64,000 nucleotides of DNA. Source: Botryllus schlosseri (lineage: Eukaryota). Numbering within the stretch: the stretch's first letter is position 1; each line of letters starts with the position of its first letter. The position numbers were made by a program, and so were the translations under genes. The stretch lies in NCBI GenBank assembly GCA_051294905.1, contig CM119373.1:1428001-1492000 (forward strand). The letters are read 5' to 3'. Shown in pieces: positions 1,269 to 35,750 of this stretch. The notes beneath the pieces were generated by a model. It was not told where the DNA came from, did no database searches, and saw nothing but the letters and a program-made list of their open reading frames with translations.

Positions 1269-1282
1269 TAATAATAATAATA

Positions 1283-2623: not shown

Positions 2624-2640
2624 AATAATAATAATAATAA

Positions 2641-9016: not shown

Positions 9017-9350
9017 GTATTGATTCTCATATCGTTATCTATACCCTTGTAGAAGTATATATTCACCTTATCCTAATTAGCAATATCTGCATCCAATCAT
9101 TGGCGGTGTCACAACCGATTCACACCAAGAAAATCACCGATTCAATGTTTAATTATAGATAACTAACATACGGATGGATGAGGGGCTCAGTCATTACACT
9201 TGAATAGGCCCAGACCTAATGATGAGTCGGCTAAAACCAGCATTATTGGTAGCCGCATACTTGGCGATACGAACCCTGAAATGCAATAAAACTAGTTTTC
9301 ACTGAAAGCTAGTGTCAGTAGTTAGTATGATCGGTCGTGAGGTGCGTGGG

Positions 9351-9600
9351 GCTCTTATGGCGGGGTGGTGAGCGGCTGGAAAACCGGGGGTGGTGAGCGG
9401 CTCCTTATACCTTATGGCGGGGTGGTGAGCGGCTATTGTGTCTTATGGCGGGGGTGGTGAGCGGCTCTTATTTCTTATGGCGGGGGTCGTGAGCGGCTGG
9501 AAAACCGGGGGTGGTGAGCGGCTTTTATGTCTTATGGCGGTGGTCGTGAGCGGCTATTGTGTCTTATGGCGGGGCGACATGCGGCTATTGTGTCTTATGG
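9351..9600 (+). repeat. GC-rich subterminal tandem repeats of element 1 (mirror at ~22536-22785)
   Basis: Repeated CTTATGGCGGGGTGGTGAGCGGCT / GGAAAACCGGGGGTGGTGAGCGG units. Confidence 0.9.
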
Positions 9601-12600
9601 ATGCGGGATAGCTCGCACGCGGCTTCGTTGTTGGCATGTCGTACTTCGTGTTGAATATGTATCAAGTAAATAGTCATGTGATTGGTCCTTAGGTAATGTG
9701 TATATTCCAAATTACGGCGAGTACGACAATGATATATCGTTATTCTTATGGGCACGGCGATGATTCGTACTTTCGTTTATAGACTGCGGGTGGCATGTCG
9801 TACTTTCAGCAAAAAAGGTGTGAAATAGTTTGCTAAGTCTAGGAATCACTTGCAAGGTAATGTTTGGGTAATTAGATTACCACAGAGCCGGCGTAGACGG
9901 CAATTCGAATATCAACAATAACCACGCTCACAAACTAACAGTTCAAAAATGTGTGAAATAGTTTGCAAAACTCCGCGATCGCCCACAAGATAATGTCTCG
10001 GACATAACCATCTTTAGTGACTTGGTGTTACAGGCATATCGATCACTCACGCGGTGAAATTTTCGTAAGCAGTTTGGCACAGAGCTTGATTTCACTCGTA
10101 AGATTTAATAAGTAACGAATAACAGACCGCCAGTGTCGGTAACTTGAATAGCGACAAATTGTCACTTATTTCCGCTCTAACCCTAATCCTTTGTGAAGTG
10201 AACGCTTATTCAAAAGGGTGTGATATAATTTTAAAATCCGACGACCACTCACCGGATAATGCTTCAGACGCTCACAAGGTAATATTTCGGTAATTAGTTT
10301 GTCCCAGAACCGTCGCAGGCGGTGATTCGAAAACCAACAATTTGTCACTCGCCCGCGATCGCTATATGTTTCACACCTCCAGAATAGTGGCTGACTTTAG
10401 TTGCGTGATAAGATCCATGAAAATATTCAATCAATGTGTTAGTTTGTCAACTTGAAATGAAACTCACTACACAAATCAAGTCGATTCGTATCTGAATGTT
10501 TTAAATCGGTACAACTCTAATCCTTTGACAAATCCCTTAACGCGTTTTTGTTGAATCGACCGTAACCCGAATATTACTGACGCCGACTTTCAGCCGCATC
10601 GAATTATTCGCACATTCCGCACCACTGTTTCACACTTATAGAATCAATACAAGAATCAAGAATCACAAGTATGTGCATTACACAGTTATTGTCTTTATTA
10701 ACTTGAAATCAAACACTTAACAAAAACACGCAACTAATCATTTGGCAACTCTAGCATTACCAAAAAATTCCAGTATTGTTGATTGGAAATCCTTGAGTCA
10801 TTATTATCAAAAATGTTATAGTACCGCATCGGAATCCATTCGCGGGATGTACTAAAGGTAAATCCAGATAATCCAAAATGAAATATTTGGACTTTGACAA
10901 ACATGACTACCAACTTTGATCCAGTCACATTTCAAGATCATACTTTGAAACAATCCTTGAAACTTACAACTCTATTCACGACTGAGTTTTCCGTTTATCA
11001 AATAGAGTTTCAGCAAATACTATCGCGATATTTTAATGTGTTACTACACACAATAGAATCAATCAATGAAATAGCACCTGTTGTAAATATTTCTAACTTG
11101 ACAACCACGATCGACTTGTGACGCGATGAGTTAAATCGGAATATTTCAATCTATTTGTCGAAACCTTGAACAAACTATCAGGTTATTTTTTGTTGCAATC
11201 GAGTGAACGGAAATAGTATTACGTCTCAACATTTCAACATCTTCCCATACACAAAAGAGTAAAATACAAAAAACCTTGTCAAGTCAATCCGTTTGTAACT
11301 TACCCAACCAAAACAAAAAGTATCCTTACGAAAAGTAGACAAGACTACGCAAGTAATCACTACAACCAACAAACATATCAAGTTCGGTTTTAGGCATATA
11401 CCACCAACTCGTCTTATTGGAATGTCAGCAACTCTTTACGGTCGTAGTTACAACCACATAAACTAATTTACCCTGCCCACACGTCATGATCATTCCTGAA
11501 ATCAACACAAACTCGACCACTGACTTGAGTTAACCACAAAACGGCATCAAGTTTTTAATCCACGTATAGCTGACAGATTATTCGAATACATCGATGGAGA
11601 ATATTATTGAACTCGTCGGTATTGTTACTTCAACAAATTACACCGACTGCGAAAGTTAATATGGAATGGTAAGACTTGATCACATATTTGTTGAACACAG
11701 ACATGACAAAGAACATGATCGGGATTTTATAAACTAGTCATATTACTTTTCACATCTATCAATATCAGAATACAAGTCATCAAACTTTTTGTTAAATGTA
11801 ACATAGCACTTTTGGAATCGGATTCGTTATAGTCGTACAAATTGTATTAAACCCAACATCAAAACAAAAGGACTTTTTTAGTTCATTGAAATCAAACCAT
11901 TCGTCTTCGACTTGTGCTTTTTTAGATTGCCCGCGACAATTCGTTTCGAGTGAGTTGTAACCAAAGTCAAGATATCTTTGTGTCCACAGATATGGAAGAT
12001 GAATATAGCTAACACAATCACGAATCGACGTTTCAGAGTATTTCACGGATGTAATAAACTTGTTAGTGTCACCTATCTAAAAGTACGCACGCGTTCGATT
12101 TCCATACCGACTGTTGCGATGTTTAGGATTCACTTACAATAACCACGGGTGAGGATTTAACATCAACGTCGTTACTGGTGGTATTCACAACAGAGAATCG
12201 AAACATTACACAGTGTGAAAATATATCTTTGATATCAAAGCATTATCCCAAGTATACGATTAATAGTCAACTCCGTTCACACTTTCTATAGAACGTGCTA
12301 AATGTAAAATATCAGGAGGTTGCACTCTAAGACTTTGATCATTACAAAAGTAAATTGGAATATGTTTGCTGGATGCATTCAATTCAGCTAGAAATGTCTA
12401 GTGCACAACAATCGTAATATCAAGGAAGTACTTGCTATCACTAAACGTGTTTTGTATCGTTGTTCATTTGTAGTATTTATTGAAATTGTTTTTGAACACT
12501 CAAATAATAATTCCCGACATGAAACCAAGCCGCTGAAAGTCGTTACCATAACAAAGAAACAATTTGTACGATGTTTGGCAAATGTACCCTATAGTTAGGT

Positions 12601-14289
12601 GTACTAGAATTATTTGTGTAACACATACACCGACAATGCAATCGAAATTTTTTCCGTTGTCATTCGCTAAAGTAAATGTCATCACAATACTCTGTCACTA
12701 AAAGACGTTACTCGGACGTGCTTGAATTCTAGGCATAGTTCTGATTTACCCAACACAAGACCCAAGGACAACCCTAGTTTCAGTCGAACACAGATATCCA
12801 AAATATCGCACACTTCGCTATTCCTAAAGCGCAAACAGCCGATATAAAATATTACTGGTTGTGTTGTTGCGGCATCATCTTCACAATATCACCCTCAATA
12901 CAAATGATGTTTATGTGTAAAATGCTATTGATTTGAATCACACCCACCTGACGGAAGAGGATTTACTCAATCTTTACAAAATGGATATTGACCAACATCA
13001 CATCGCCGGATTGTATCTGTTTTGCTGGATACGAGTTATGTTAGTTTAACAGTAAACAAATTTCACCCTCTTGGATTATGAACTCAATGCGTTAGCAGTC
13101 ATTCAATATTTTGTTTGTGTCAACTAATAGTTACGTTGTATGATACGACTGATGACCCCCGCGACTTTTCAGACCCCAATATGAAAGATATTTACATCAC
13201 ACGAAATACTCCACTCGACATTCTCACACTACGAAACTAAAGAATGGTTGGTTAGACTATACAAACTGTTTTGGTATCACAAGAACTTTTTTTACACGAA
13301 TGGTCACGCATCTAAATATTCAAATAATCCAACAGACAATTATAATACTTACAGAAATATCATAGTTCTTGTAACAAAGTTGTATGTGTACAATGTTTAT
13401 CGTAAGTCCTACACATTCATGATATCCGACCGAGTTTGACTTTTAGAAAACATTATACCGACATCGCGACATCTTTCAAAATCAAAACCATGGTCACTGC
13501 TTGAGATACCTACCATGTCATCACAGTAATCCAGTTACTTCCACAAAAGATTATGTATTCGACTTACGTTCCACAAATCTAACGCGCAAAACAATTTACT
13601 TTGCTAACGAAAAGTGCTTAGTCATCATATGGTTGTCCTCACAACAATGCAACTAAAACATACTATCATACAAAATGGTGGTTATAGTTTGCACACCAAC
13701 GGTACATCGTACAAGTAACAAGTCTCGAGAATCTGTTAATTGAAAAAAAACGTGAAAGTGTTTCTCTTGCGCCAAGTCGTTATGTTGACGAAAGCGTATA
13801 TTGTGATATCACGATCAATTTGCATTCGTTGGTCACAAACTGTCACTACTCTAAATAATTCTTTTTCACTCAAACACAAAAGCATACTTGTCACCATTCG
13901 TTTTCATCAAACACGAGTTCAAGAAACTTACTTACCACGACATGAATTGTTATTTTTATGTTGAGTAAATAGGTAATAATTAATTCAAGTAACACTATAT
14001 CAACATCATCGAGCTGTGCGAATAGATTTACAGGTGGTCTTGTGGTTTTAATCGAAGCATACAGCATGGTCTAATGTAGACTCTTCTCTCTTGTACAGCA
14101 ACTCGCTAATCGAAATGCATGCATTCACATTTGAACAACGATCTTGTTTCGTCGCACCAAAAATATGTTCACTGTCACAATACTCTGCACATAACGTGCA
14201 AATCCTTTTCACCCTCGTAATAGTATACCAACGACCACCGACGACAACGTTTAACAATACCAACGACACTGGAAACACTGAACCCACGA

Positions 14290-15140
14290 CACTTACCCAA
14301 GTAAAAATACATTTTCCTTTGGCTACATGACGCTCACCAGAGTAAAAAATATCATTATCACCTGGAGATCCACCGTTACCCGAACAACAAAACCATTTTC
14401 CTTTGGAGATCTATCGTTTACCCAGTGTAACAATACATTTTCACATGGTGATCCATCGTTTACCCTGAGCAACAAACCTTTTTCACTTGGAAATATATTT
14501 TTTCCCTGGGTAACAAACCTTTTTCACTTGGAAATATATTTTTTCCCTGAGTTACAAACCATTTTCACTTGGAAATATATTTTTTCCCTGAGCAACAAAC
14601 CCTTTTCACTTGGAAGTATATTTTTTCCTGGAGCAACAAACGTTTTTCCACTTGGAAATATATTTTTCCCTGAGTAACAACCCCTTTTCACTTGGAAATA
14701 TATTTTTACCCTGGATAACAAACCCCTTTTCACTTGGAAATCTATTTTTGCCCTGGATAACAAACCATTTTCACTGAGTACCAATACCGTTTTCACTTGG
14801 AAATATATTTTTTCTCTTGGTAACAAACCTTTTTCACTTGGAAATATACTTTTTCTCTGGTTAACAAACCTTTTTCCCTGAGAAACAAACAATTTTCACT
14901 TGGTGGTCCATCGTTTACCCGAGTAAAAATATCATTTTCTTTTGGAGATCCGGCGTTTACCCAGTGTAACAATACATTTTCACTTGGAAAAATACTTTTA
15001 CCTAGAGTAACTAATCATTTTCTCCTGGGTAACAAATCCTTTTCATCTGGAAACTATCATTTACCTGAGTACCAATACCGTTTTCACTTGGAAATCTATC
15101 TTCTCCTTGGGTAACAATATCATTTTCGTTTTGAAAACTG
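14290..15140 (+). repeat. ~40-bp minisatellite in element 1 (mirror at ~16996-17846)
   Basis: About 20 units of TTTTCACTTGGAAATATATTTTTTCCCTGAGTAACAAACC. Confidence 0.92.
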
Positions 15141-18100
15141 ATAACCACACCGGCCAATTTGATATTTTTGTATATTGTTACAACGGGCAGTGACAAAATA
15201 TACACCAACAACGGCTCCGGTACATCTGTCTAATCAAATATTCACTTGCTCTGATGCATCCCATCAAAATCATCGGTTACTCACATACAATAACAATGAG
15301 CTGTTGTACATCGACATGTATGTTTTCGGAATTGGTGAATAAAGAGGTTTCCGATATGTCCGTGATGTCCGGGTTCGTGCTTTGGATTTTCCAGAGTCAA
15401 AATGTCTGAATAAAACACCTCCTCGACTTTGGTAACTGGTTGATACACGGATAATGGCGTTTGGAAAACGGATGAATTTATGTTCCCCATCGCGCTAACA
15501 ACTCCGAGTTACTTGTGAGTTTCCTCAGGTCTGTTTACTATATTGTGTCTTTACTGATCAATACATGTCGCTCCAGTCAGCTGAAACCGGATCACTAATA
15601 TGAGAAAGTGTGCGGGGGCCTGATCCGGATATTCACTCATGAACCAACGAGCAATATTCAAGTAAACATGCTACAGACCGTGTTTTGTCTCCATGAAAAA
15701 TACCAATGCATACACCACCACATACAAGTAACGTCACGATTGTTCACAAGTATTCGCGTAAACGAGGTATACATACAATGTGTCGGTGTACAAACATCAT
15801 GGAAAACAAATTCATGTTCTCAAGTCTCATCATGCGACGACTCTGTACATTCAATGTGGGTATAGATGACACACGGCATGATACAACGGACAGTGCGTTA
15901 TGCATACCGATATATTCTCAGTCAAATATGCGAACCATACACAACCATATACCCCGATTTTCGCTGAATATCCACAACACCAACAAATCTGTACATTTCT
16001 TTTCCCTCAACCTTGACGATAGAGTTGACCTCCCAATGTACCAATCGAGTGTATGGTTCATCAGGTGTAAAATCCAAATCAAATGTCACCAAGGTATCGT
16101 TTTTCATTTTTAATATTTCCACTGCCGCATCTTGTCTGTGTCGTAAAACCACGGCGTGGGGCCAGAGGAATCTATGGACAGTTACGCGTAGTCCCATATT
16201 TACTCGTGGATATGGTTAGGTTATGACGACGTTTTCTCAATGGTCTGTGTGGGTGCACCGTTTCAATACGTAGCTGGATCAACTAGATCAAAAGTTTCCA
16301 ACCGTGTTTTATAACGACCTGTAGAATTACGAGATAGCACCCTCTTGCGGTGTGATTAACACGAAATAAACCTTCAACTCGCAGAGACACACCTTGGATT
16401 ACATTATCTAATCGTAATCGAACTCGAGATTCACACACACACACAGAGTCCCTGTTTACGATTTCAATCCGGAGTCACTGCTCACGATGTTTATCTGTAG
16501 TCCGGATCCGGATCAGGCCCCCGCACACTTTCTCATATTAGTGATCCGGTTTCAGCTGACTGGAGCGACATGTATTGATCAGTAAAGACACAATATAGTA
16601 AACAGACCTGAGGAAACTCACAAGTAACCCGGAGTTGTTAGCGCGATGGGGAACATAAATTCATCCGTTTTCCAAACGCCATTATCCGTCTATCAACCAG
16701 TTACCAAAGTCGAGGAGGTGTTTTATTCAGACATTTTGACTCTGGAAAATCCAAAGCACGAACCCGGACATCACGGACATATCGGAAACCTCTTTATTCA
16801 CCAATTCCGAAAACATACATGTCGATGTACAACAGCTCATTGTTATTGTATGTGAGTAACCGATGATTTTGATGGGATGCATCAGAGCAAGTGAATATTT
16901 GATTAGACAAATGTACCGGAGCCGTTGTTGGTGTATATTTTGTCACTGCCCGTTGTAACAATATACAAAAATATCAAATTGGCCGGTGTGGTTATCAGTT
17001 TTCAAAACGAAAATGATATTGTTACCCAAGGAGAAGATAGATTTCCAAGTGAAAATGGTATTGGTACTCAGGTAAATGATAGTTTCCAGATGAAAAGGGT
17101 TTGTTACCCAGGAGAAAATGATTAGTTACTCTAGGTAAAAGTATTTTTCCAAGTGAAAATGTATTGTTACACTGGGTAAACGCCGGATCTCCAAAAGAAA
17201 ATGATATTTTTACTCGGGTAAACGATGGACCACCAAGTGAAAATGGTTTGTTTCTCAGGGAAAAAGGTTTGTTAACCAGAGAAAAAGTATATTTCCAAGT
17301 GAAAAAGGTTTGTTACCAAGAGAAAAAATATATTTCCAAGTGAAAACGGTATTGGTACTCAGTGAAAATGGTTTGTTATCCAGGGCAAAAATAGATTTCC
17401 AAGTGAAAAGGGGTTTGTTATCCAGGGTAAAAATATATTTCCAAGTGAAAAGGGGTTGTTACTCAGGGAAAAATATAGTTCCAAGTGGAAAAAGGTTTGT
17501 TGCTCCAGGAAAAAATATACTTCCAAGTGAAAAGGGTTTGTTGCTCAGGGAAAAAATATATTTCCAAGTGAAAATGGTTTGTAACTCAGGGAAAAAATAT
17601 ATTTCCAAGTGAAAAAGGTTTGTTACCCAGGGAAAAAATATATTTCCAAGTGAAAAAGGTTTGTTGCTCAGGGTAAACGATGGATCACCATGTGAAAATG
17701 TATTGTTACACTGGGTAAACGATAGATCTCCAAAGGAAAATGGTTTTGTTGTTCGGGTAACGGTGGATCTCCAGGTGATAATGATATTTTTTACTCTGGT
17801 GAGCGTCATGTAGCCAAAGGAAAATGTATTTTTACTTGGGTAAGTGTCGTGGGTTCAGTGTTTCCAGTGTCGTTGGTATTGTTAAACGTTGTCGTCGGTG
17901 GTCGTTGGTATACTATTACGAGGGTGAAAAGGATTTGCACGTCTTGTGCAGAGTATTGTGACAGTGAACATATTTTTGGTGCGACGAAACAAGATCGTTG
18001 TTCAAATGTGAATGCATGCATTTCGATTAGCGAGTTGCTGTACAAGAGAGAAGAGTCTACATTAGACCATGCTGTATGCTTCGATTAAAACCACAAGACC

Positions 18101-21100
18101 ACCTGTAAATCTATTCGCACAGCTCGATGATGTTGATATAGTGTTACTTGAATTAATTATTACCTATTTACTCAACATAAAAATAACAATTCATGTCCTG
18201 GTAAGTAAGTTTCTTGAACTCGTGTTTGATGAAAACGAATGGTGACAAGTATGCTTTTGTGTTTGAGTGAAAAAGAATTATTTAGAGTAGTGACAGTTTG
18301 TGACCAACGAATGCAAATTGATCGTGATATCACAATATACGATTTCGTCAACATAACGACTTGGCGCAAGAGAAACACTTTCACGTTTTTTTTCAATTAA
18401 CAGATTCTCGAGACTTGTTACTTGCACGATGTACCGTTGGTGTGCAAACTATAACCACCATTTTGTATGATAGTATGTTTTAGTTGCATTGTTGTGAGGA
18501 CAACCATATGATGACTAAGCACTTTTCGTTAGCAAAGTAAATTGTTTTGCGCGTTAGATTTGTGGAACGTAAGTCGAATACATGATCTTTTGTGGAAGTA
18601 ACTGGATTACTGTGATGACATGGTAGGTATCTCAAGCAGTGACCATGGTTTTGATTTTGAAAGATGTCGCGATGTCGGTATAATGTTTTCTAAAAGTCAA
18701 ACTCGGTCGGATATCATGAATGTGTAGGACTTACGATAAACATTGTACACATACAAATTTGTTACAAGAACTATGATATTTCTGTAAGTATTATAATTGT
18801 CTGTTGGATTATTTGAATATTTAGATGCGTGACCATTCGTGTAAAAAAAGTTCTTGTGATACCAAAACAGTTTGTATAGTCTAACCAACCATTCTTTAGT
18901 TTCGTAGAGTGAGAATGTCGAGTGGAGTATTTCGTGTGATGTAAATATCTTTCATATTGGGGTCTGAAAAAGTCGCGGGGGTCATCAGTCGTATCATACA
19001 ACGTAACTATTAGTTGACACAAACAAAATATTGAATGACTGCTAACGCATTGAGTTCATAATCCAAGAGGGTGAAATTTGTTTACTGTTAAACTAACATA
19101 ACTCGTATCCTGCAAAACAGATACAATCCGGCGATGTGATGTTGGTCAATATCCATTTTGTAAAGATTGAGTAAATCCTCTTCCGTCAGGTGGGTGTGAT
19201 TCAAATCAATAGCATTTTACACATAAACATCATTTGTATTGAGGGTGATATTGTGAAGATGATGCCGCAACAACACAACCAGTAATATTTTATATCGGCT
19301 GTTTGCGCTTTAGGAATAGCGAAGTGTGCGATATTTTGGATATCTGTGTTCGACTGAAACTAGGGTTGTCCTTGGGTCTTGTGTTGGGTAAATCAGAACT
19401 ATGCCTAGAATTCAAGCACGTCCGAGTAACGTCTTTTAGTGACAGAGTATTGTGATGACATTTACTTTAGCGAATGACAACGGAAAAAATTTCGATTGCA
19501 TTGTCGGTGTATGTGTTACACAAATAATTCTAGTACACCTAACTATAGGGTACATTTGCCAAACATCGTACAAATTGTTTCTTTGTTATGGTAACGACTT
19601 TCAGCGGCTTGGTTTCATGTCGGGAATTATTATTTGAGTGTTCAAAAACAATTTCAATCAATACTACAAATGAACAACGATACAAAACACGTTTAGTGAT
19701 AGCAAGTACTTCCTTGATATTACGATTGTTGTGCACTAGACATTTCTAGCTGAATTGAATGCATCCAGCAAACATATTCCAATTTACTTTTGTAATGATC
19801 AAAGTCTTAGAGTGCAACCTCGTGATATTTTACATTTAGCACGTTCTATAGAAAGTGTGAACGGAGTTGACTATTAATCGTATACTTGGGATAATGCTTT
19901 GATATCAAAGATATATTTTCACACTGTGTAATGTTTCGATTCTCTGTTGTGAATACCACCAGTAACGACGTTGATGTTAAATCCTCACCCGTGGTTATTG
20001 TAAGTGAATCCTAAACATCGCAACAGTCGGTATGGAAATCGAACGCGTGCGTACTTTTAGATAGGTGACACTAACAAGTTTATTACATCCGTGAAATACT
20101 CTGAAACGTCGATTCGTGATTGTGTTAGCTATATTCATCTTCCATATCTGTGGACACAAAGATATCTTGACTTTGGTTACAACTCACTCGAAACGAATTG
20201 TCGCGGGCAATCTAAAAAAGCACAAGTCGAAGACGAATGGTTTGATTTCAATGAACTAAAAAAGTCCTTTTGTTTTGATGTTGGGTTTAATACAATTTGT
20301 ACGACTATAACGAATCCGATTCCAAAAGTGCTATGTTACATTTAACAAAAAGTTTGATGACTTGTATTCTGATATTGATAGATGTGAAAAGTAATATGAC
20401 TAGTTTATAAAATCCCGATCATGTTCTTTGTCATGTCTGTGTTCAACAAATATGTGATCAAGTCTTACCATTCCATATTAACTTTCGCAGTCGGTGTAAT
20501 TTGTTGAAGTAACAATACCGACGAGTTCAATAATATTCTCCATCGATGTATTCGAATAATCTGTCAGCTATACGTGGATTAAAAACTTGATGCCGTTTTG
20601 TGGTTAACTCAAGTCAGTGGTCGAGTTTGTGTTGATTTCAGGAATGATCATGACGTGTGGGCAGGGTAAATTAGTTTATGTGGTTGTAACTACGACCGTA
20701 AAGAGTTGCTGACATTCCAATAAGACGAGTTGGTGGTATATGCCTAAAACCGAACTTGATATGTTTGTTGGTTGTAGTGATTACTTGCGTAGTCTTGTCT
20801 ACTTTTCGTAAGGATACTTTTTGTTTTGGTTGGGTAAGTTACAAACGGATTGACTTGACAAGGTTTTTTGTATTTTACTCTTTTGTGTATGGGAAGATGT
20901 TGAAATGTTGAGACGTAATACTATTTCCGTTCACTCGATTGCAACAAAAAATAACATGATAGTTTGTTCAAGGTTTCGACAAATAGATTGAAATATTCCG
21001 ATTTAACTCATCGCGTCACAAGTCGATCGTGGTTGTCAAGTTAGAAATATTTACAACAGGTGCTATTTCATTGATTGATTCTATTGTGTGTAGTAAGACA

Positions 21101-23553
21101 TTAAAATATCGCGATAGTATTTGCTGAAACTCTATTTGATAAACGGAAAACTCAGTCGTGAATAGAGTTGTAATTTTCAAGGATTGTTTCAAAGTATGAT
21201 CTTGAAATGTGACTGGATCAAAGTTGGTAGTCATGTTTGTCAAAGTCCAAATATTTCATTTTGGATTATCTGGATTTACCTTTAGTACATCCCGCGAATG
21301 GATTCCGATGCGGTACTATAACATTTTTGATAATAATGACTCAAGGATTTCCAATCAACAATACTGGAATTTTTTGGTAATGCTAGAGTTGCCAAATGAT
21401 TAGTTGCGTGTTTTTGTTAAGTGTTTGATTTCAAGTTAATAAAGACAATAACTGTGTAATGCACATACTTGTGATTCTTGATTCTTGTATTGATTCTATA
21501 AGTGTGAAACAGTGGTGCGGAATGTGCGAATAATTCGATGCGGCTGAAAGTCGGCGTCAGTAATATTCGGGTTACGGTCGATTCAACAAAAACGCGTTAA
21601 GGGATTTGTCAAAGGATTAGAGTTGTACCGATTTAAAACATTCAGATACGAATCGACTTGATTTGTGTAGTGAGTTTCATTTCAAGTTGACAAACTAACA
21701 CATTGATTGAATATTTTCATGGATCTTATCACGCAACTAAAGTCAGCCACTATTCTGGAGGTGTGAAACATATAGCGATCGCGGGCGAGTGACAAATTGT
21801 TGGTTTTCGAATCACCGCCTGCGACGGTTCTGGGACAAACTAATTACCGAATATTACCTTGTGAGCGTCTGAAGCATTATCCGGTGAGTGGTCGTCGGAT
21901 TTTAAAATTATATCACACCCCTTTGAATAAGCGTTCACTTCACAAAGGATAAGGGTTGGAGCGGAAATAAGTGACAATTTGTCGCTATTCAAGTTACCGA
22001 CACTGGCGGTCTGTTATTCGTTACTTATTAAATCTTACGAGTGAAATCAAGCTCTGTGCCAAACTGCTTACGAAAATTTCACCGCGTGAGTGATCGATAT
22101 GCCTGTAACACCAAGTCACTAAAGATGGTTATGTCCGAGACATTATCTTGTGGGCGATCGCGGAGTTTTGCAAACTATTTCACACATTTTTGAAGTGTTA
22201 GTTTGTGAGCGTGGTTATTGTTGATATTCGAATTGCCGTCTACGCCGGCTCTGTGGTAATCTAATTACCCAAACATTACCTTGCAAGTGATTCCTAGACT
22301 TAGCAAACTATTTCACACCTTTTTTGCTGAAAGTACGACATGCCACCCGCAGTCTATAAACGAAAGTACGAATCATCGCCGTGCCCATAAGAATAACGAT
22401 ATATCATTGTCGTACTCGCCGTAATTTGGAATATACACATTACCTAAGGACCAATCACATGACTATTTACTTGATACATATTCAACACGAAGTACGACAT
22501 GCCAACAACGAAGCCGCGTGCGAGCTATCCCGCATCCATAAGACACAATAGCCGCATGTCGCCCCGCCATAAGACACAATAGCCGCTCACGACCACCGCC
22601 ATAAGACATAAAAGCCGCTCACCACCCCCGGTTTTCCAGCCGCTCACGACCCCCGCCATAAGAAATAAGAGCCGCTCACCACCCCCGCCATAAGACACAA
22701 TAGCCGCTCACCACCCCGCCATAAGGTATAAGGAGCCGCTCACCACCCCCGGTTTTCCAGCCGCTCACCACCCCGCCATAAGAGCCCCACGCACCTCACG
22801 ACCGATCATACTAACTACTAGTGTCGCGCTCTTTACGAAAATACAAATTAAAATGTGGTCAGGGCAATGGAACAACTCCCAAGTAGCCGTAAAACTCGAT
22901 TCATCTGAACAATTGGAGCGCAGTATGACAATGAACAAGAAAATGGCTGATTCCATCGCGCGATTTTCTGACTTTGACGGCAATTTCAGGGGGATTCCAT
23001 TTCCCTGGCCAGATTTCAATCTCCATTTTTGTAATCAGTGCGACCCTAGCTTTCGATTAAGACCAGTTATATCACATTTGAGCGTTCGAATCTCCCAGAT
23101 ATAGGAATAACAATTATGCTGCAACTCCCACCGTGAAACATCGAAATATCAATCAACTGTAACCCCACCAACAAAAATTGGCGACGTCATAGTGGCACGA
23201 AATCGACGTTCAGCACATAGCATCTGTCCTGGTCGGTATATACTCCCGTGTCACAAAGTGATGTGATGTAATAAACCCCTGGCTATTAAGATATACACTC
23301 GGTCATCGAGAATCAACATTGCATGACTAGTCGTGATACATTCTGATTCGAAGGAATGTAGACCTTCATAATAAAACGTTTGTCTCCTTTGTTAGCTACA
23401 ATTCTACGGGATTGATATGTCCGATGTAAATGCAGAAGTTTTGAAGAATGAAATTTTTTCTCCGTAGTTATTGCGATCATTCCTCAATAGATAACAATTC
23501 ACAATATGAAAATGTATTTGAATGTAACATGAATCTTGCTATTCCTTATTATA

Positions 23554-23899: not shown

Positions 23900-26800
23900 T
23901 TATTATATAGTTTCGGCTTTGTAATTCATATGCATTGCATATGCATACCAATAAATAGAGAAGAGCTTTCGCGGACTGTTTCCTATAAAGTAACAATTGA
24001 TCCTATTTCTCCACAACTAAATTCCATTGGTCCAACATTTTTATTTGTCCATATTGTTATCAGGACAATCAGTGACAATAAATTGCGTGGAGCGTGAAGA
24101 AAAAATCCCAATGTGAATGAATTTTCCTGGAAATATACTCTACTTTATGCAGATGTGCGCAGTAACGTCGAACCTAATTCGTGTTTTTGCTATCAATGAG
24201 GCAATTAAGTAGTAGGATGGGATTCGTTTGTTACCGTCCAATCACAGAAGGCCACGTCGCCTTAATTGCCACGCCTACATTGCCACATCATCCGCCCATT
24301 TATTTAGAATGTAAACACTCTCATAATATAATTTGCGTCGGACTATGCCTGGTTTATGATGTCATCACAGAGGAATTAGGCGACTGCAATGCTTTGTGAA
24401 TTTCAATACCGATTTTCCATGTGTATTTAGCAATATGTATTGAATACCTTTGCGATTTTGAGCGCTGCGACTTGATAATATCAATCCCTACGCTTCTGAT
24501 GTATGATTTTTTTTTGTGTTAAGGACCTTGGTAACATTCAGAGTCTGCAACGATTGTTTGGATATACATTATAGCAATACCCCACCAAACTATAGGCGGT
24601 TATATTACTCTATTGGCCAGAGATAACTCATCCGTCCATATTTTTAAACTTGATTTTATGTATACAAGTTACGGTCTCTGCAGCCTCAACATTTTACGAC
24701 TTATTTTCATTAGACGCAGGCAAGCGGTTCTCCAGTTCGGAGCTACGAAAACAAGTCACTTGCATGTGCGCGTTCCGAATAGTCTTGTAGAATTTTCTAA
24801 AGCCGTAACAGCTAAGTAGCATATACGCGAATCCCAAGGCGAAAATAATCGAACAATAATTTTCTAAAGTCGTAACAGCTCAGTAGCATATACGCGAATC
24901 CCAAGCGAAAATAATCGAACGAACTATAGCCGCAGGCGTGCGATTCGCGGGACTTTAATTATACAAACACTTCCGATGCCTGTACGTGAACCCCGGCGTT
25001 ATAACGATTAGATCTAATTAGCGCGTTCTGAAGCCGTAAATTTAGTCAACATCATTGAGATAACCCTGATTTAAAGATGATGATCGAGTGTGACAATAGC
25101 ACTCGTCAAGGTTATACTAACATACCCTTAAACTACTCTCTACTTCACAAAATATAAAGTTAACGATTCCTAACTCGCAGTTACGAAGCAAAAGTCGATA
25201 TTGCTTTGTGATGATTTTGATGTTGTTCCATACCGATTGGGAAGATAGCACACCTAATTTCGTAACTAACTACATAATCCCTAGTAACGTAGTAAGACGC
25301 ATAACGGAATTTACGCAAAATCGGTATTGCTCTGCGATAATTTTGATCACTATGTTTTGATAATGACTTGCTTCCAAGAAATAAATCACATTCATTATAC
25401 GTTAGATGATACTTTTCCTTGATATTCTATCATGTGTATTTAGGACTAATGCGACATCACTATGTTTACGGCAGGTCTGATTTGAACACACTAATTTTGC
25501 GTATCACACCACAAACTGCGAGAGCCTTCAAAGTTGATAAGTAAACAAGTATTTGCACTCCATCATAATACTAAAGTAGCTTTTCGCGTATTTGTACCTA
25601 ATACTAAAGTGTTTATGATTTCAAATTGCTTCAACTTCATGACATTTTCAGTATTAAACAGAAATATAGACCTAGAATACTAACTTTTATTCGTAAATAG
25701 CTACTTCCTATACCTTAATTTAATGGATTTATCTGAGATCATTCCTTTACTTAATCTCTCCAAAATGTGCATTATACAAGTACGTCACCATCGAAACCCT
25801 CTCGCTATAACTATCTGGCAGTATAATTGCATTTAAGACATTATGGCAATGTACCATGTCAAATTTTGTTACGCATTTCATGATTAAACAACTTTAAAAC
25901 CAACGTAGTTCTATACCGACATTTGCGTGAATCTGTTTTGCGGGAGCGTAGCACATACCTATGCGTAGTCAACTTTAATGGCGGAATTACAGATGCAATT
26001 AAGTTTCAACACTTTTACAACGATTCTTGCTTCCTATAACTTCCCACTCGAGGCCCTCGTTATTAGACTATGATCTCAGCCTGAGCTATGTCTTGAAGCC
26101 TACGGGACTCTGCTAATTGTTTCGATTTATTCTGCCCGTTTTAATTTAAGACAAGGAAGCCCATTTCACTCAATGTATCGATGCCTACGGTACTCTACAA
26201 AATTTCTTGAATAATTCTCCCTATGTTAATTTACGATAAGAAAGACAATTTGACTCCTGAAGTCCGAAATACTTGTTCGCTTGAGCTCAGCCGCAGCGCC
26301 TGGAGTGGAATTTTATAGTTCTTGTAAAAAGTTGTTTGTGCACAATATATGTTTAAGGTAGGTCCTACGCATTCATGATTTAGTCCGAGTTTGTATTTTA
26401 GTACTACAATTTTATCGCGGAGCGCAACAAGATAAATCGTATGAATTTGTAAACTACTTATTCATGACATAGTAATAATTCTACTTGTGTACTTTTTCAT
26501 ATTTTGCAGCAATTTTAGTAGTACTTAAATAAAATTCGGAATATAAACTAATCGAAAAATTCGGTAACCAATTTCGCATAGGCTATGCATACAAATGAGG
26601 AAAGTTACATCAACGCGTGTTAACTAATTGAATTATGTAGCTTGTAATTCATGCAAGTTTCGAAACTTCTACACTGAATCCTTTAAAGTAGATAGAATCG
26701 AAAAAACTAATCGAAAATATTCACGAAGTTTGGATGCGACATATTTGGGTTTTTTAAAATCATTCATACCCATGATTCGAAATACTTTAACTAACTTATG

Positions 26801-27379
26801 TTTTCGACATAAGATAAGCGTGAAATGTACAAATTTCTATGTTGCGCAAATACCACAAACTTTGCTTGCTTTCAGACCCGGCAACTAAATGCAAGACAGA
26901 ATTTACGCAAAAGTTGCTATTCTGAAAATTTTGTCAAGGTAATAGTTTAAAAGTTTACACTTGAGCACTACGAAATGTTCAAGTACTTTATCTTTACACG
27001 ACGTTTTTTGTAAAATGAATACCAATATTATTGAAAAAATAAAAAATAAAAAGAGCGAATAATTACATTTTATCCCGGAACGCAACAAGAAAAATCGTAT
27101 GAATTTGTAAACTAATAAACATTAATAATTCTACTTGTACACTTTTCCACACTTTATAACACTTTAAGTAGTACTTAACAGTTTCAGTTTTAAATAAAAT
27201 ACGGAATATAAACTAATCGAAAAATTCGGTTACCAATTTCGCGTAGGCAATGCATACAAATGAGGAAAGTTACATCAACGCGTGTTAACTAGTTGTATCG
27301 AGTTATCGAATGACTTTTTTTTCTTTACATCAAAATAACTAGAGTGTGTAACTACATTAAAAACGTATCTAAATGAGCT

Positions 27380-28540
27380 CCAGGTCATTGTGATTATGCA
27401 GCATACCAAATTTCATCACACATTTCATGATGGAACAACTTTAAAACTAACGCAGTTCTATAGCAACTTTTGCCTAAATCTGTTTTCGGTAGCATGTACA
27501 TATCCATAGTCAGCTTTAATAACAGAATTACCATGCTAATATGTGACTCCTCACCTTGAAACTTGGTACGTAGTTGTAGGACATTGTGATTATGCAGCAT
27601 ACCAAATTTCTTCACGCATTTCATAATGGAACAACTTTAAAACTAACGCGGCTCTACATCGACTTTTTGCGTACATCTGTTTTGCGGGAGCGTATAGCAC
27701 GTACCTATACATAGTCAACTTTAATAACGGAATTACCATGCTTAACATTGAATCCCAACTCTAAACTTGATTCGTAGTTGTAGGACATTGTGGCAATGCA
27801 CCATGCTAAATTTCATCGCACATCTAATGATGGATCACCTTTAAAACTAATGCAGTCGAATACCGACTTTTAAGCATATCTGTTTTGCGTGAACATAGCA
27901 TATACCTATGCATAGTCAATTTTAATAGCAGAATTACCGTGTTAAACATTGAATTCCCACCTTGAAAGTTGGTACGCGATTATAGGACACTATAACGATG
28001 CACCATACCAAATCCCATCACACATTTCATGATGGAACAACTTTAAAACTAACGCGGCTCTACATCGACTTTTTGCGTATATCTGTTTTGCGGGGGCGTA
28101 TAGCACGTACTCATACATAGCTAACTTTAATAACGGAATTACCATGCTTAACATTGAATCCCAACTCTAAACTTGATACGTAGTTGTAGGACATTATGGC
28201 AATGAACCATGCTAAATTTCATCACATATCTAATGATGGAACACCTTTGAAACTATCGCAGTCGAATACCGACTTTTACACATATCTGTTTTTCGTGAAC
28301 ATAGCATATACCCATACATAGTCAATTTTAATAACAGAATTAGCATGCTAAACCTTAAATTCTCACCTTGAACGTTGGTACCCAGTTGTAGGACATAATA
28401 ACAATGCACCATACCAAATTTCGTCAGGCATTTCATGATGTAACACTTTCAAAACCAACGCAGTTCTATACAGGCTTTTGGCTAAATCTGTTTTTCCGTA
28501 GCGTAGCACGTACCTATACATAGTCAACTTTAATATCAAT
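27380..28540 (+). repeat. ~203-bp satellite (alternating units, ~406-bp dimer) in element 2; mirrored at ~36330-40170 with an extra dimer
   Basis: Recurring ggacattgtg..gca..atac/atgc..aaattt units near 27382, 27580, 27783, 27986, 28189 and 28391. Confidence 0.85.
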
Positions 28541-31500
28541 ACATGTTTATCGTAAGTCCTACACAGTCATGATATCCGGCCGAGTTTGACTTTTAGAAAA
28601 CATTATACCGACATCGCGACATCTTACAAAATTGAAACCGCGGTGACTGCTTGAGAGACCTACCAGTGATATCGCGGTAATCTAGTTACTTCCACAAAAT
28701 AGTATGTATTCAACTTACTTTCCACAAATCTAACGCGCAAAACAATTTACTTTGCTAACGAAAAGTGCTGAGTCATCATATCATTATCCACCCAACAATA
28801 CACCTAAAACATACTATCGTACAAAATGGTCGCTAACCTCTTTGTGCACCAGCTGTAAATCTCACAAGCAACAAGTTTCAAGATTCCAGTTATTGAAAAA
28901 ATGTTAAAGTGTTTCTCCTGCGCCAAGTCGTTATGTTGACGAAAGCGTATATTGTAATATCATGATCGATTTGCATTCGTTGGTCACAAACTGTCACTAC
29001 TCTAAATAATTATTTTTCACTCAAACACAACAGCATACTTGTCGCCATTCGTTTGCATCAAGCACGAGTTCAATAAACTTACTTAATACGACATGAATTG
29101 GTATTTTTATGTTGTGTAAATAGGTAATAATTAATTTTAGTAACACTATACCAACATCATCGAGTTGTGCGAATAGATTTACATGTGGTGTTATGGTTTT
29201 AATCGAAGTACACTGCACGATCTAATGTAGAGTCATCTCTATTGTATAGCAACTCGGTAATCGAAATGCATGCATTAACATTTAAACAGCGATCGTGTTT
29301 CGTCACGCGAAAAATACGTTCACTACCGCGATACTCTGCACAGGGCGTGCAAATCCTTTTCACACTCGTAATAGTATACCAACGGCTACCTGCGACAACG
29401 TTTAACAATACCAACGACACTAAACATACGATACCTACCCAATCTGCAAATTGTTTCGATTTATTCTGTCCGTTTCAATTTAAGATAAGGAAGCCCATTT
29501 CACTCAATGTATCGATGCCTACGGTACTCTACAAAATTTTCTGATTAATTCTCCCTATGCTTATTTATCACAAGAAAGATGATTTGACACCTAAAGTACG
29601 AAATACTTTTACGCTTGAGCTAAGCCGCAGCGCCTGAAGTGGAATTTTACGGGGTATGTGGACTCATTTCGTAGGGCTCTATGCCATAGGAGCATACTTT
29701 ACGCTCCAATTCGATTCCCACACATTCCATATAATTACTAACAGAACCATTGAGTACCAGCCTTGACATTTTCCGTAGTACTAGATGGCATGTATACAAT
29801 TTCACGACATCCGACATTACGACGAAGACTATCAAAATATCGAAAGAAGCCCTCTATTCTTTTCTGAAATAATCAAGGTTTTATCAGGACTTCCCTTCAT
29901 ATAAACTCCAGCAGAATCACTAATAACCTCTCAAGTGTACTCAATTTACTCTAATTTGATACTCGTGTACCAAATCCCTATTTTCCGCAAGTATGATAGA
30001 GGCTATCGCTCGATACTCAACGATTCGTAATTTTGCTGGAATACAAGTACAATTAGTTTAAAGTAGTTTGAGGTTACGTTTGTATCACCTTGACAAGTGC
30101 TATTATCAAAAAATGCTTTTGCTAAACTCTTACCCTTTCACTAAACTTCTACACGGAATCTTGTAAAGTAGATAGAAAAGGAAAACTATTAACATAAGGT
30201 ATGTGAGAAGCACGCAAATTTCGATTGCATACAAATGCCACAAACTGCGCTAACTTCCAGAGTTGTTAAGTATAGAAGTACTCGTACGTCTTGAGAATAC
30301 CCAAGTAGGTTTTTTGCCTACATGTACCAAATACTCTCTAGTCCTTATGATATTGGAGTACATCAACTTCATGATAGCTACAGTATTAAACAGAAATAGA
30401 CCTAGAGTACTAACGTTTTTGTGCAGTGAGAGTTCGCAAATTATCGAAGTATTTTTGTTATTTTTATTGCGATAAGTCATTCTGCAGCGCAAAAATGCGT
30501 CGTAGGATATAGATGAAACTAGCACCACTCATCAAGACCGCTGATAACAGTACATTTCAACATTTAGTTGCAGTAAATTTCGAGTAAAGTACAAGAAGTG
30601 ATGATTTCCGAGTGAGTTAAAAAGTAAGTATTGCAGGTATAGTTTACCTGAAAACCGAATACTCTGAAATAGAAGTAGATGCAGTGTAAATAGTTAATCA
30701 CTTGATTAAGTATAGCGAAAGCAGATAAAACCTATACTTGAGTACTACAAAATACACGAGTACTTCGCTATCGACTCCCTCCACGTAATAAGTGACTACG
30801 GTTTAAGACTGCTTTTACCGATACTCGTCAGTTTCCGTTTTAGATAGAATTCGGAAACCAAATAATTTCATAAACATAAGCTAATTAAATGAATTTACTC
30901 GAATGTACTATGCCGCGCTGATAAGATTAATTATAATATACTTATCATGTTAGAGCGATTTTTCTAGCGTAGAAAATCTTTAAAATGTAGTAAGCAGGCC
31001 AAAATGAAGATATTCGTTGAGCTGAATAAACATAAAAAATACTCTAGACTACTTTATCGGTACTTTACAGTTTCAGTTTTAGATAAAATTTGTCCATTTC
31101 ACTCCTCGCTATCTAAACATGTTTAGAATATATTATTTGCGATGATACGAACCCGTAAAGTACTCAAGTAGCTTTTCGTTGGATATAGATGAAACTGACA
31201 CCACTCACCAAGACCACTGGCCCACCGACAAAAAGTACATTTCAACATTTTAGTAACAGTAAAGTCCTACTAAAGTACAAGAAGTCATGATTTCCGAGTG
31301 AGTTAAAAAGTAAGTATTGAAGGTATAGTTTGCTCGAAAACCGAAAAACTCTGAAATAGAAGTAGATGCAGTGTAAATAGTCAATCACTTCATTTAGTAT
31401 AGCGCAAGCAGGCCAAACCTATACTTGAGTACTCCAAAATATACAAGTACTCCCTCCACGTAAAAAAGCGACTAGGGTTTAGACTACTTTATCGGTACTT

Positions 31501-34485
31501 GACAGTTTCAGTTTTAGATCAAATTTGGTGAGACTTTAAATTTTGAAGTAGTTTGAGCTTACGTTTGTATCACCTTGACAAGTATCATTATCAGACATGA
31601 AAATGATACTATCACCTAATACAGAAGTTAACACACGTCAATGTGCTTCGGAATTCACGAGAAATTGCTTACTAAGAGAAGTATATTCTTGTATACACAA
31701 TAGTGGAGAGAATCTTTAAAATGTAGTAAGCAGGTCGATGGGTATTCATTGAGTTGTATAAGCATAAAAAACATTCCCGCGCGCTCCTAAACCTAACACT
31801 TCCTACCCTACCACCTTATACTAAGACGCGCGCGGGAATGTTTTTTATGCTTATACAACTCAATGAATACCCATCGACCTGCTTACTACATTTTAAAGAT
31901 TCTCTCTACTATTATGTATACAAGAATATACTTCTCTTAGTAAGCAATTTCTCGTGAATTCCGAAGCACATTGACGTGTGTTAACTTCTGTATTAGGTGA
32001 TATTATCATTTTCATGTCTGATAATGATACTTGTCAAGGTGATACAAACGTAAGCTCAAACTACTTTAAAATTTAAAGTCTCACCAAATTTGATCTAAAA
32101 CTGAAACTGTCAAGTACCGATAAAGTAGTCTAAACCCTAGTCGCTTTTTACGTGGAGGGAGTACTTGTATATTTTGGAGTACTCAAGTATAGGTTTGGCC
32201 TGCTTGCGCTATACTAAATGAAGTGATTGACTATTTACACTGCATCTACTTCTATTTCAGAGTTTTTCGGTTTTCGAGCAAACTATACCTTCAATACTTA
32301 CTTTTTAACTCACTCGGAAATCATGACTTCTTGTACTTTAGTAGGACTTTACTGTTACTAAAATGTTGAAATGTACTTTTTGTCGGTGGGCCAGTGGTCT
32401 TGGTGAGTGGTGTCAGTTTCATCTATATCCAACGAAAAGCTACTTGAGTACTTTACGGGTTCGTATCATCGCAAATAATATATTCTAAACATGTTTAGAT
32501 AGCGAGGAGTGAAATGGACAAATTTTATCTAAAACTGAAACTGTAAAGTACCGATAAAGTAGTCTAGAGTATTTTTTATGTTTATTCAGCTCAACGAATA
32601 TCTTCATATTGGCCTGCTTACTACATTTTAAAGATTTTCTACGCTAGAAAAATCGCTCTAACATGATAAGTATATTATAATTAATCTTATCAGCGCGGCA
32701 TAGTACATTCGAGTAAATTCATTTAATTAGCTTATGTTTATGAAATTATTTGGTTTCCGAATTCTATCTAAAACGGAAACTGACGAGTATCGGTAAAAGC
32801 AGTCTTAAACCGTAGTCACTTATTACGTGGAGGGAGTCGATAGCGAACTACTCGTGTATTTTGTAGTACTCAAGTATAGGTTTTATCTGCTTGCGCTATA
32901 CTTAATCAAGTGATTAACTATTTACACTGCATCTACTTCTATTTCAGAGTATTCGGTTTTCAGGTAAACTATACCTGCAATACTTACTTTTTAACTCACT
33001 CGGAAATCATCACTTCTTGTACTTTACTCGAAATTTACTGCAACTAAATGTTGAAATGTACTGTCATCAGCGGTCTTGATGAGTGGTGCTAGTTTCATCT
33101 ATATCCTTCGACGCATTTTTGCGCTGCAGAATGACTTATCGCAATAAAAATAACAAAAATACTTCGATAATTTGCGAACTCTCACTGCACAAAAACGTTA
33201 GTACTCTAGGTCTATTTCTGTTTAATACTGTAGCTATCATGAAGTTGATGTACTCCAATATCATAAGGACTAGAGAGTATTTGGTACATGTAGGCAAAAA
33301 ACCTACTTGGGTATTCTCAAGACGTACGAGTACTTCTATACTTAACAACTCTGGAAGTTAGCGCAGTTTGTGGAATTTGTATGCAATCGAAATTTGCGTG
33401 CTTCTCACATACCTTATGTTAATAGTTTTCCTTTTCTATCTACTTTACAAGATTCAGTGTAGAAGTTTAGTGAAAGTGTAAGAGTTTAGCAAAAGCATTT
33501 TTTGATAATAGCACTTGTCAAGGTGATACAAACGTAACCTCAAACTACTTTAAACTAATTGTACTTGTATTCCAGCAAAATTACGAATCGTTGAGTATCG
33601 AGCGATAGCCTCTATCATACTTGCGGAAAATAGGGATTTGGTACACGAGTATCAAATTAGAGTAAATTGAGTACACTTGAGAGGTTATTAGTGATTCTGC
33701 TGGAGTTTATATGAAGGGAAGTCCTGATAAAACCTTGATTATTTCAGAAAAGAATAGAGGGCTTCTTTCGATATTTTGATAGTCTTCGTCGTAATGTCGG
33801 ATGTCGTGAAATTGTATACATGCCATCTAGTACTACGGAAAATGTCAAGGCTGGTACTCAATGGTTCTGTTAGTAATTATATGGAATGTGTGGGAATCGA
33901 ATTGGAGCGTAAAGTATGCTCCTATGGCATAGAGCCCTACGAAATGAGTCCACATACCCCGTAAAATTCCACTCCAGGCGCTGCGGCTTAGCTCAAGCGT
34001 AAAAGTATTTCGTACTTTAGGTGTCAAATCATCTTTTTTGTGATAAATAAGCATAGGGAGAATTAATCAGAAAATTACCGTAGGCATCGATACATTGAGT
34101 GAAATGGGCTTCCTTATCTTAAATTGAAACGGACAGAATAAATCGAAACAATTTGCAGATTGGGTAGGTATCGTATGTTTAGTGTCGTTGGTATTGTTAA
34201 ACGTTGTCGCAGGTAGCCGTTGGTATACTATTACGAGTGTGAAAAGGATTTGCACGCCCTGTGCAGAGTATCGCGGTAGTGAACGTATTTTTCGCGTGAC
34301 GAAACACGATCGCTGTTTAAATGTTAATGCATGCATTTCGATTACCGAGTTGCTATACAATAGAGATGACTCTACATTAGATCGTGCAGTGTACTTCGAT
34401 TAAAACCATAACACCACATGTAAATCTATTCGCACAACTCGATGATGTTGGTATAGTGTTACTAAAATTAATTATTACCTATTTA

Positions 34486-35750
34486 CAGAGGTGGTCAAAG
34501 TAGTCAAGAAAACTACTCAAGTAGAAGTAGAAGTAGCGACGAAAAAATCTACTCAAGTACGAGTAGAAGTACTTTTTCAATAAGCCCCCTAAAACTACTT
34601 GAAGTAGAAGTAAAATTGACTGACGTTAAATCTACTTTTAAGTAAGTAAGTAGTTTTGAAAACAGTCATAATTCGTACGCATGGACTGTCAAAAGCTGCG
34701 AATTCAGCTATGCTGTAGGTGCAGAGAGCTTGATTCGTATTGATGCATTCCAGGAGGTATCAATTTTCGACAGCATAAGCATTGTTTCGCGCCATGGGAT
34801 GAAAATTATAGTATTGATATGAGAATGCAATACTAACCCTTTGTTTACTAGAAGACCCCGTTAGATATGGCACCCCACCCCATATTATAAGGCCCAAGTT
34901 CAGGCGAAGAGCAATACGTAGAAGTTGTATCGGATACGGTTTCATCACTTTTCGCGATTAGGAAATAACAAATATTGTGCATCGTAAAAGTTATATTTAG
35001 TGTATACCTTTTATTTCGGAAAATAGAGGCATTGCTACACTTGCTTTTAAGGTTCAACATGTTTGTTCTGCAGACAAAAGAACTGAAAATAATTAGAACT
35101 CAAAGTATGATACTCGCAATTGAAAGTGAAACACAAATACCACTTTTAAACAGCAGAAAATATATTTCATGTAATTTGTCCATAAAGCTTCAAAGGTGAT
35201 CTTCTGAAACAGGTGTAGCGTTAAACAGCTGGATATTCGAGATTAGCAAGACACGTAATGTGCTGCTAGATTACGATGTGATTGGTAACTGCTAGATTGC
35301 GAATCGGTAGTTTCAAACGTCATGATGGGCCATATTTACTGTGATGAAATATTTAATATGGGCGACAATGAGGTGTGAGAGGAACCAAGCAATCCGGTAC
35401 CTGAATTATATTCACTGATACTTTCATGAAAACATATTTGTCATTCCACCACTACTATGCGCGAATCACAACAAAATTATAGGATTTACTTGACTTTTAT
35501 GAAAATTGAATGTTGATACTCCGTGAAAACAGCCCCGAAATTCCTCAGGCTATCTTTCACATTAGGGGTAATAAACTACTTCTACTTGACAAACTGAAAA
35601 TAGCGAAAAGTAAGTAAGTAGATCACAAAATTTTACGAAGTAGAAGTAAAAGTAGAGAAAATCAGATCTACTTGAGTAAGTATCAGAAGTAGAGGAAAAC
35701 TACTTGAGTACTTCCAAAAAGTAGAAGTACTTCGTTACTGACCACCTCTG
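34486..35750. mobile_element. hAT (Tol2-like) MITE, in the right arm of element 2 only
   Basis: TIRs cagaggtggtca / tgaccacctctg; TSD cctattta; tactcaagta/agtagaagta subterminal repeats; empty site at 29117-29124. Confidence 0.93.

Follow-up and report, generated by a model that had tools for sequence, protein, structure and literature searches.

The palindromic element and its loop gene

The window analysed here is a 64,000-nucleotide stretch of the Botryllus schlosseri genome (assembly GCA_051294905.1, contig CM119373.1, positions 1,428,001 to 1,492,000; C3:1428001-1492000 in the 495-Mb genome of 219 contigs that was searched), and it contains a palindromic element at 9317..22819 (positions are those of the window throughout). 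Its two arms of 6,314 bp, the left at 9317..15630 (plus strand) and the right at 16506..22819 (minus strand), match each other in inverted orientation at 99.56% identity in a self-BLAST search; the global alignment of arm against arm contains 26 substitutions and two one-base indels, a divergence of 0.41%. The left arm begins with AGTAGT, the right arm finishes with ACTACT, and a perfect direct copy of AGTGTC stands directly outside each end (9311..9316 and 22820..22825, plus strand). Termini of the form (AGT)2 or (AG)3 and a 6-bp target-site duplication (TSD) are those of the Mavericks or Polintons. A Maverick has a unique interior flanked by terminal inverted repeats (TIRs) that range from tens of bp to ~1.5 kb; here the 6,314-bp arms leave 93.5% of the element's length paired, and the Maverick core genes (pPolB, integrase, ATPase, protease, capsid proteins) are absent from it. 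By membership the element is not a Maverick; it works like a satellite of one, and the gene in its loop is under purifying selection.

An earlier sequence-only reading of the window had described the arms with their scattered substitutions, the termini and TSD, the subterminal tandem repeats, an inverted-repeat fraction of ~94% and the lack of open reading frames (ORFs) over ~135 aa, all of which we find as well; the longest ATG frame encodes 135 aa. The 875 bp between the arms have the length given in that reading but do not form a single spacer. They comprise the innermost 240 bp of the left arm (15631..15870, plus strand), unpaired with its mirror deleted, and ~635 bp of true loop (15871..16505; ~975 bp in close relatives), because the window copy lacks 585 bp that are present in a relative (345 bp of loop and 240 bp of right arm). 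This deletion lies at the 16502/16506 junction and starts ~300 bp upstream of the loop gene.

Several modules can be recognized in the arms. The first 458 bp (9317..9774, plus strand) are shared, at 91% identity, with the TIR of a coding Maverick from this genome, and they probably serve as origin and integrase site, a function assigned by inference. They include a hypervariable end segment (9323..9353, plus strand) and G-rich tandem repeats of 32, 57 and 121 bp (9353-9574; mirror at 22536-22783). Further inwards lie a module with 88% identity to a neighbouring second palindromic family (13393..14277, plus strand) and a 41-bp tandem array (14353..15127, plus strand; mirror at 17000-17788). A codon scan and ORF clustering of the arms gave no gap-free signal comparable to that of the loop gene, and an Rfam scan of 9000-44000 returned no match.

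The loop is the best-conserved part among divergent copies. On its minus strand (16197-15922) it carries a single-exon frame 91 codons long. Its start and its stop are both conserved across copies, and for this reason we rejected the possibility that the frame is an internal exon. By a strict rule the frame is intact in 38 of 46 matches not cut by a locus edge, two of the other eight being intact with one extra codon, and it is free of stops in 149 of 150 scored genome matches among 1,099 candidates. The other reading frames contain 1.3-4.8 stops per sequence. Among 33 distinct intact alleles the ratio of nonsynonymous to synonymous divergence (dN/dS) is 0.47, 0.35 and 0.27 with rising distance, at dS values of up to ~0.9. 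The gene is under purifying selection, and the description of the element as non-coding in the sequence-only reading has to be given up. The gene is present in 20 of 24 palindromes sampled on C1 and also occurs in the arms of some copies of the second palindromic family. One RNA run placed 57 reads on the element, 53 of them only partially, and is uninformative on the loop gene.

The encoded protein is an orphan. A search of 1.8 billion sequences gave one real match and two matches to repeat proteins; its relatives amount to four matches from the same family, none of them longer, and Pfam, PDB, PHROGs, phages, viral contigs and the Atlas yielded no match. Homology to a minor capsid protein or a single-stranded-DNA-binding protein was rejected (best hhalign probability 5%, and 0.3% with an alignment). 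The structure model is all-beta with a predicted local distance difference test score (pLDDT) of 67, and fold searches returned weak beta-sandwich matches only, the HSP20/CS-like fold among them (best Z 5.9, root-mean-square deviation 4.0, 66 aligned residues; weak Foldseek E value of 0.012). The protein is dispensable in cis and therefore would act in trans; as a tentative suggestion, its putative role might most plausibly concern the replication or packaging of the helper described below.

The palindrome family and its probable helper

With the first 304 bp of the element as query, its ends were found genome-wide as convergent pairs. Both ends were located in 16 of 19 groups fetched, and each of these 16 has its own perfect 6-bp TSD. 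A strict end pattern matched 1,008 times in forward and 1,001 times in reverse orientation (0 in the control), which puts the number of such pairs in the genome at about 1,000. Among the first 100 matches listed for this pattern we sampled 29 end pairs on C1, leaving aside unpaired ends, five pairs longer than 20 kb and four that had already been examined. Perfect TSDs of their own flank 27 of the 29, and the search for further copies that the sequence-only reading had proposed was thus productive. The sample comprises 24 palindromes (>4 kb paired), one coding Maverick and four decayed or mis-paired cases. The palindromes have a median arm of 6.4 kb and a median loop of 0.92 kb, and their core (twice the arm plus the loop) measures 13.0-14.8 kb in 21 of 24, the remaining three having large one-armed indels; indels of this kind are retained in eight of the 24. 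The targets show a preference for NNYRNN, with a central CG at 22 of 44. As an estimate, ~900 copies of 14 kb would occupy ~2-3% of the genome as 6-kb inverted repeats, which would affect the stability of the genome as well as its assembly and repeat annotation.

Some copies depart from this design. A subtype (loci L145, L191 and L064/L065) has a ~340-bp loop and arms of 6.6-6.8 kb, and the 91-aa gene was not detected in it. A copy of 26.9 kb (L051-L053) consists of two palindromes, one of which sits within an arm of the other and has a TSD of its own; its interpretation as a concatemer was rejected on these grounds. Another, of 30.4 kb (L058-L061), is a palindrome of higher order in which the loop gene is duplicated symmetrically; it includes a 100-N gap and is possibly an artefact.

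Two end pairs, 15.4 and 15.8 kb long, prove to be coding elements; they have the same ends as the palindromes, and their TIRs measure ~780 and ~550 bp. The autonomous partner anticipated by the sequence-only reading is therefore present in the genome, and we refer to it as the helper. It encodes an integrase with chromodomain (E value 3e-16), a pPolB match in one of the two elements (1e-7) and a weak match to an A32-like ATPase; frames of 423 and 167 aa are candidates for capsid and protease by order, size and motifs only. A 211-aa gene at its left end has a faint OB-fold match (E value 0.08-0.13). Of 306 candidate matches to the 423-aa frame, 99 were scored; 82 of these are near full length at 96-100% identity, and 11 stand at ~80%. 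The palindromes are therefore several times as numerous as this helper, perhaps ten times. A second family of coding Mavericks (L197-L200), ~80% identical in the 423-aa frame, has different AGTAGT ends.

The helper and the window element share 458 of 6,314 bp at 91% identity; past ~460 bp, the likeness is confined to one stretch of ~170-240 bp at ~70%. When the translations of 30 helper ORFs were compared by tblastn with 76 loci and the window, only the 211/218-aa ORFs matched any palindrome, and none matched in the window. None of the 10 helper stretches retrieved contains the loop gene. Since only 458 bp are common to both, the window element is neither a deletion derivative nor a plain copy-back of the helper. 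The sequence-only reading had seen in it one Polinton end copied back on itself, which the independent interior does not support; it had also considered a simple internal deletion of a partner with 6-kb TIRs, but the TIRs of the helper measure 0.55-0.8 kb. As in a virus satellite, the genome of the element is its own and not derived from the helper, and it contains a selected gene of its own.

What the two share are the ends, whose alleles are drawn from one pool. The first 38 bases are distinct in all 29 sampled left ends, and the hypervariable segment is nearly always identical at both ends of one copy, its alleles being common to the coding Mavericks. In helper and satellite alike the first ~38 bases vary combinatorially (in 29 copies, one hexamer has 12 variants and an 11-mer has 21); in a few copies the two ends carry different standing alleles. 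Three palindromes carry 0.9-1.6 kb of the helper's left end, with the 211-aa gene, in both arms (L037/L038, L066/L067 and L165/L166); these carriers remain 12.8-14.5 kb long. Mobilization in trans by an autonomous Polinton, as the sequence-only reading had supposed, is likely given the shared ends, the TSDs of individual copies and the coding partner in the genome. That a Maverick mobilizes the family appears very probable, with the ends, the TSD and the target preference pointing to action in trans.

Mirrored arms and competing explanations

The arms of different copies have diverged deeply, and the two arms of one copy are nearly identical. A comparison of 20 left arms gives a median identity of 87%, with a median of 3,793 of 6,200 columns aligned, and the best partner switches along the arm, giving a patchwork from copy to copy; within one copy the arms differ by a median of 0.1-0.2%. 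A four-way comparison (13 informative of 14 pairs) gave 4,420 mirrored differences, 350 private ones and no shared one-armed difference, with four further differences unlike in both arms. The closest sisters (99.4%) have 28 mirrored, six private and no shared one-armed differences. Swaps on the kilobase scale are mirrored too, as the helper's 211-aa gene in both arms of three palindromes reveals. The interior of the palindromes is an independent, deeply diverged and recombining lineage with its own gene.

Arm divergence ranges from ~0 to 1.7% and rises with the number of indels (rho 0.78, 24 copies); copies that have large one-armed indels show 0.36%, and those without them 0.095%. Because it tracks indel decay, arm divergence behaves as an age clock: the arms appear to have been equalised around the time of insertion and to have drifted since, like long terminal repeats (LTRs), and they offer an LTR-like insertion clock. 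By this measure (0.41%) the window element is somewhat older than the median copy. The inner third has a threefold density of those arm differences for which both alleles are seen in other copies (0.64-0.71 per kb, against 0.04-0.22 per kb; 43 copies), as would be expected if the new strand folds back at varying points past the loop. We also considered that the arm differences are a residue of mismatch repair; in the window copy 6 of 24 isolated differences are C/G, but no excess is found when 40 groups are pooled (230 transitions, 30 C/G, 67 A/T and 117 other), and this possibility was rejected.

Our favoured explanation, which we consider probable, is an old satellite of Mavericks that would be copied by the helper's polymerase and inserted by its integrase, one arm being re-copied from the other during replication. 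The helper's protein-primed polymerase would begin at either end and displace a strand, which would snap back into a hairpin of ~6.5 kb whose end is a ready duplex origin; the helper, which must pair short TIRs across 14 kb, would lack this advantage. In the published Polinton model a single-stranded, racket-like intermediate is copied by pPolB before integration, at least in the portion of the source available to us (PMC4196379). With 94% self-complementarity this racket would become a hairpin with a ready origin. Past the loop the new strand would often fold back and copy itself, so that differences between the arms would be erased, most surely in their outer parts. The helper integrase would then insert the full duplex with a 6-bp duplication; a full duplex is required since integration needs two ends. 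Regeneration of an arm during replication is, like the explanation as a whole, probable. The core has 83-95% of the length of the helper, a size that would suit the helper's capsid, with the arms serving mostly as stuffer. Adenovirus packages genomes poorly below ~75% of their length, and non-autonomous transposons normally shrink; we therefore prefer packaging as the cause of the size floor, and going by length only, we lean slightly towards the palindromes being carried in helper particles.

An unlikely alternative is that the family consists of non-autonomous transposons with Maverick ends whose arms are kept alike after insertion by host gene conversion from arm to arm, with no special replication or packaging. 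The palindromes of animal sex chromosomes, homogenised in this way, provide a precedent; one-armed tracts of foreign alleles indicate that conversion-like events do occur, and the spectrum of arm differences is unremarkable (230 transitions, 214 transversions). Continuing conversion is, however, difficult to reconcile with an arm divergence of ~0-1.7% that rises with decay, with large one-armed indels persisting in eight of 24 copies and with a nested element in only one arm of a palindrome that is otherwise 99.8-100% identical, and it leaves the size floor unexplained. A cut-and-paste transposon of the Foldback type, moved by the Maverick integrase alone or by an unrelated DDE transposase without polymerase or capsid, is quite improbable. 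Foldback, Galileo and TU elements have long modular arms with tandem arrays that resemble those found here, and an integrase alone would account for the ends and the TSD; but cut-and-paste cannot mirror every change, including kilobase-scale swaps, into both arms, it offers no route to end alleles held in common with the helper, and such elements usually shrink.

A further alternative is a snap-back defective genome formed recently from the resident Maverick, in which one helper end was copied back. The ends are indeed the helper's, three copies have its left end in both arms, and snapback genomes exist in adeno-associated virus (AAV), as described in the part of PMC8235507 available to us. 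The window copy nevertheless matches the helper well over 458 bp only, a single pair of helper ORFs finds any counterpart in the palindromes, the helper stretches lack the loop gene, and the dS of that gene reaches ~0.9 while 82 of the capsid-like helper frames are 96-100% identical. A recent origin is therefore very unlikely, and for the present helper it is largely refuted; the family may derive from an ancient copy-back of another, lost helper. An assembly fold-back is scarcely credible. Although no record among the runs examined spans the element and one 30-kb nested case contains a 100-N gap, each copy has a direct 6-bp TSD, unlike flanks and a conserved asymmetric loop, and assembled contigs of three runs, each from a different study and one of them carrying a second species label, leave no bin of the element uncovered. 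For the family, unlike flanks, own TSDs and one-armed insertions exclude such an artefact, and private arm mutations add to this. Runs under the second species label (X9-X11 and X13) contain ~36% of the words of the element, and the X9 contigs cover the element and not its flanks.

Several observations weigh against the satellite explanation. No extrachromosomal form, hairpin intermediate or particle was observed, and none of the contigs from the three runs spans the window element. The size and helper fractions are approximate, given the pairs that the sample excludes. The frames taken for capsid and protease have no match in Pfam, PDB or PHROGs, and the three catalytic motif strings looked for are missing from one of the helper's two polymerase frames. 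The loop gene is missing from four of 24 sampled palindromes, and the ratio of nonsynonymous to synonymous proportions (pN/pS) is also low in the antisense frame (0.49 versus 0.40), though that frame contains stops. The excess of differences in the inner third coincides with the 41-bp array and involves non-independent tracts, novel alleles are likewise enriched there (2.6 versus 1.0-1.6 per kb), and the excess could stem from ectopic conversion after insertion.

The satellite explanation can be taken further. The palindromes may represent an endogenous satellite virus of Mavericks, old, recombining and self-complementary, with mirrored stuffer arms that fill the capsid, hypervariable ends swapped with a helper that it outnumbers, and an orphan protein that acts on this helper, the second palindromic family being built to the same design; we offer this fuller version tentatively, at slightly less than an even chance. 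Should packaging and a helper-directed loop protein prove true, the palindromes would count as endogenous satellite viruses of a new kind. It has long been asked whether animal Mavericks form particles and whether their replication passes through a folded single strand. Here a parasite several times more abundant than its helper seems shaped by both steps: fold-back would have left its trace in the mirrored arms, and packaging in the size floor. The design allows direct tests on natural tissue.

Neighbouring features and comparison with known systems

The second palindromic family is represented in the window by a copy at 24208..43337 with AGTAGT ends and the TSD CAATTA. Its 43-nt loop (31785-31827) lies at an apex that is the same in all eight centres displayed: a conserved C-rich/G-rich loop with telomere-like words between CCCGCGCGC stems. 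By the strict rule TSD pairs are present in 8 of 11 relatives fetched. The arms consist of shuffled modules, one of which, of ~890 bp, is held in common with the first family. Two one-armed inserts in the right arm (34488-35750 and 36968-39225) each have short inverted ends and look like other non-autonomous DNA transposons. A helper for this family was not found; the second coding Maverick family was rejected as a candidate, its ends being different. Upstream of the first palindrome, three tandem copies at 98.5% identity (562-3629) are presumably 3' fragments of a non-LTR retrotransposon, and 3829-4809 (minus strand) is what we take to be a reverse-transcriptase fragment, both labelled by eye.

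Miniature inverted-repeat transposable elements (MITEs) and Foldback-type transposons are non-autonomous, consist mostly of inverted repeat, reach high copy numbers and have tandem arrays in their arms, and the palindromes resemble them in all these respects. They differ in their length of ~14 kb with a size floor, in their Maverick ends and TSD, and in having re-homogenised arms and a selected gene. Viral satellites, such as phage satellites and satellite DNAs, borrow replication or packaging, have a small gene content and outlast single helper strains. A small gene content of their own and a history longer than that of one helper strain also characterize the palindromes, which are palindromic inhabitants of an animal germ line, with packaging suggested by the size range only.

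The literature listings and abstract beginnings searched, which did not extend to subscription papers or Repbase, contain no description of a palindromic Maverick satellite, and the string 'palindrom' is absent from the available text of a review of giant transposons (PMC6431247). In the part of Barreat and Katzourakis (2021; PMC8097293) accessible to us, intact vertebrate Mavericks have (AGT)2//(ACT)2 ends, a perfect 6-bp TSD, a length of 12.7-24.6 kb and TIRs of 46-1,447 bp (mean 402). The ends, TSD and length of the window element fall within this description, and the helper has the Maverick gene set by order and partly by Pfam, whereas the palindromes have ~6.4-kb arms, no core gene and a single unrelated 91-aa gene. 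Butterfly polintons, as far as the available text describes them (bioRxiv 10.1101/2025.02.07.637071), have gene-bearing TIRs of ~2 kb. They illustrate that growth to the kilobase scale is possible for TIRs and can double the genes within them, as with the captured 211-aa gene here, but they retain core genes and are not near-total palindromes. The AAV snapback genomes, in the accessible part of PMC8235507, are self-complementary and helper-dependent, with or without a loop, and template switching has been proposed for their origin. The palindromes are likewise self-complementary, with a second arm that we propose to be regenerated when the new strand folds back; in contrast to those transient pieces of a parent virus, however, they form a heritable germ-line family of hundreds of copies, whose interior is unrelated to the helper and carries a gene of its own.

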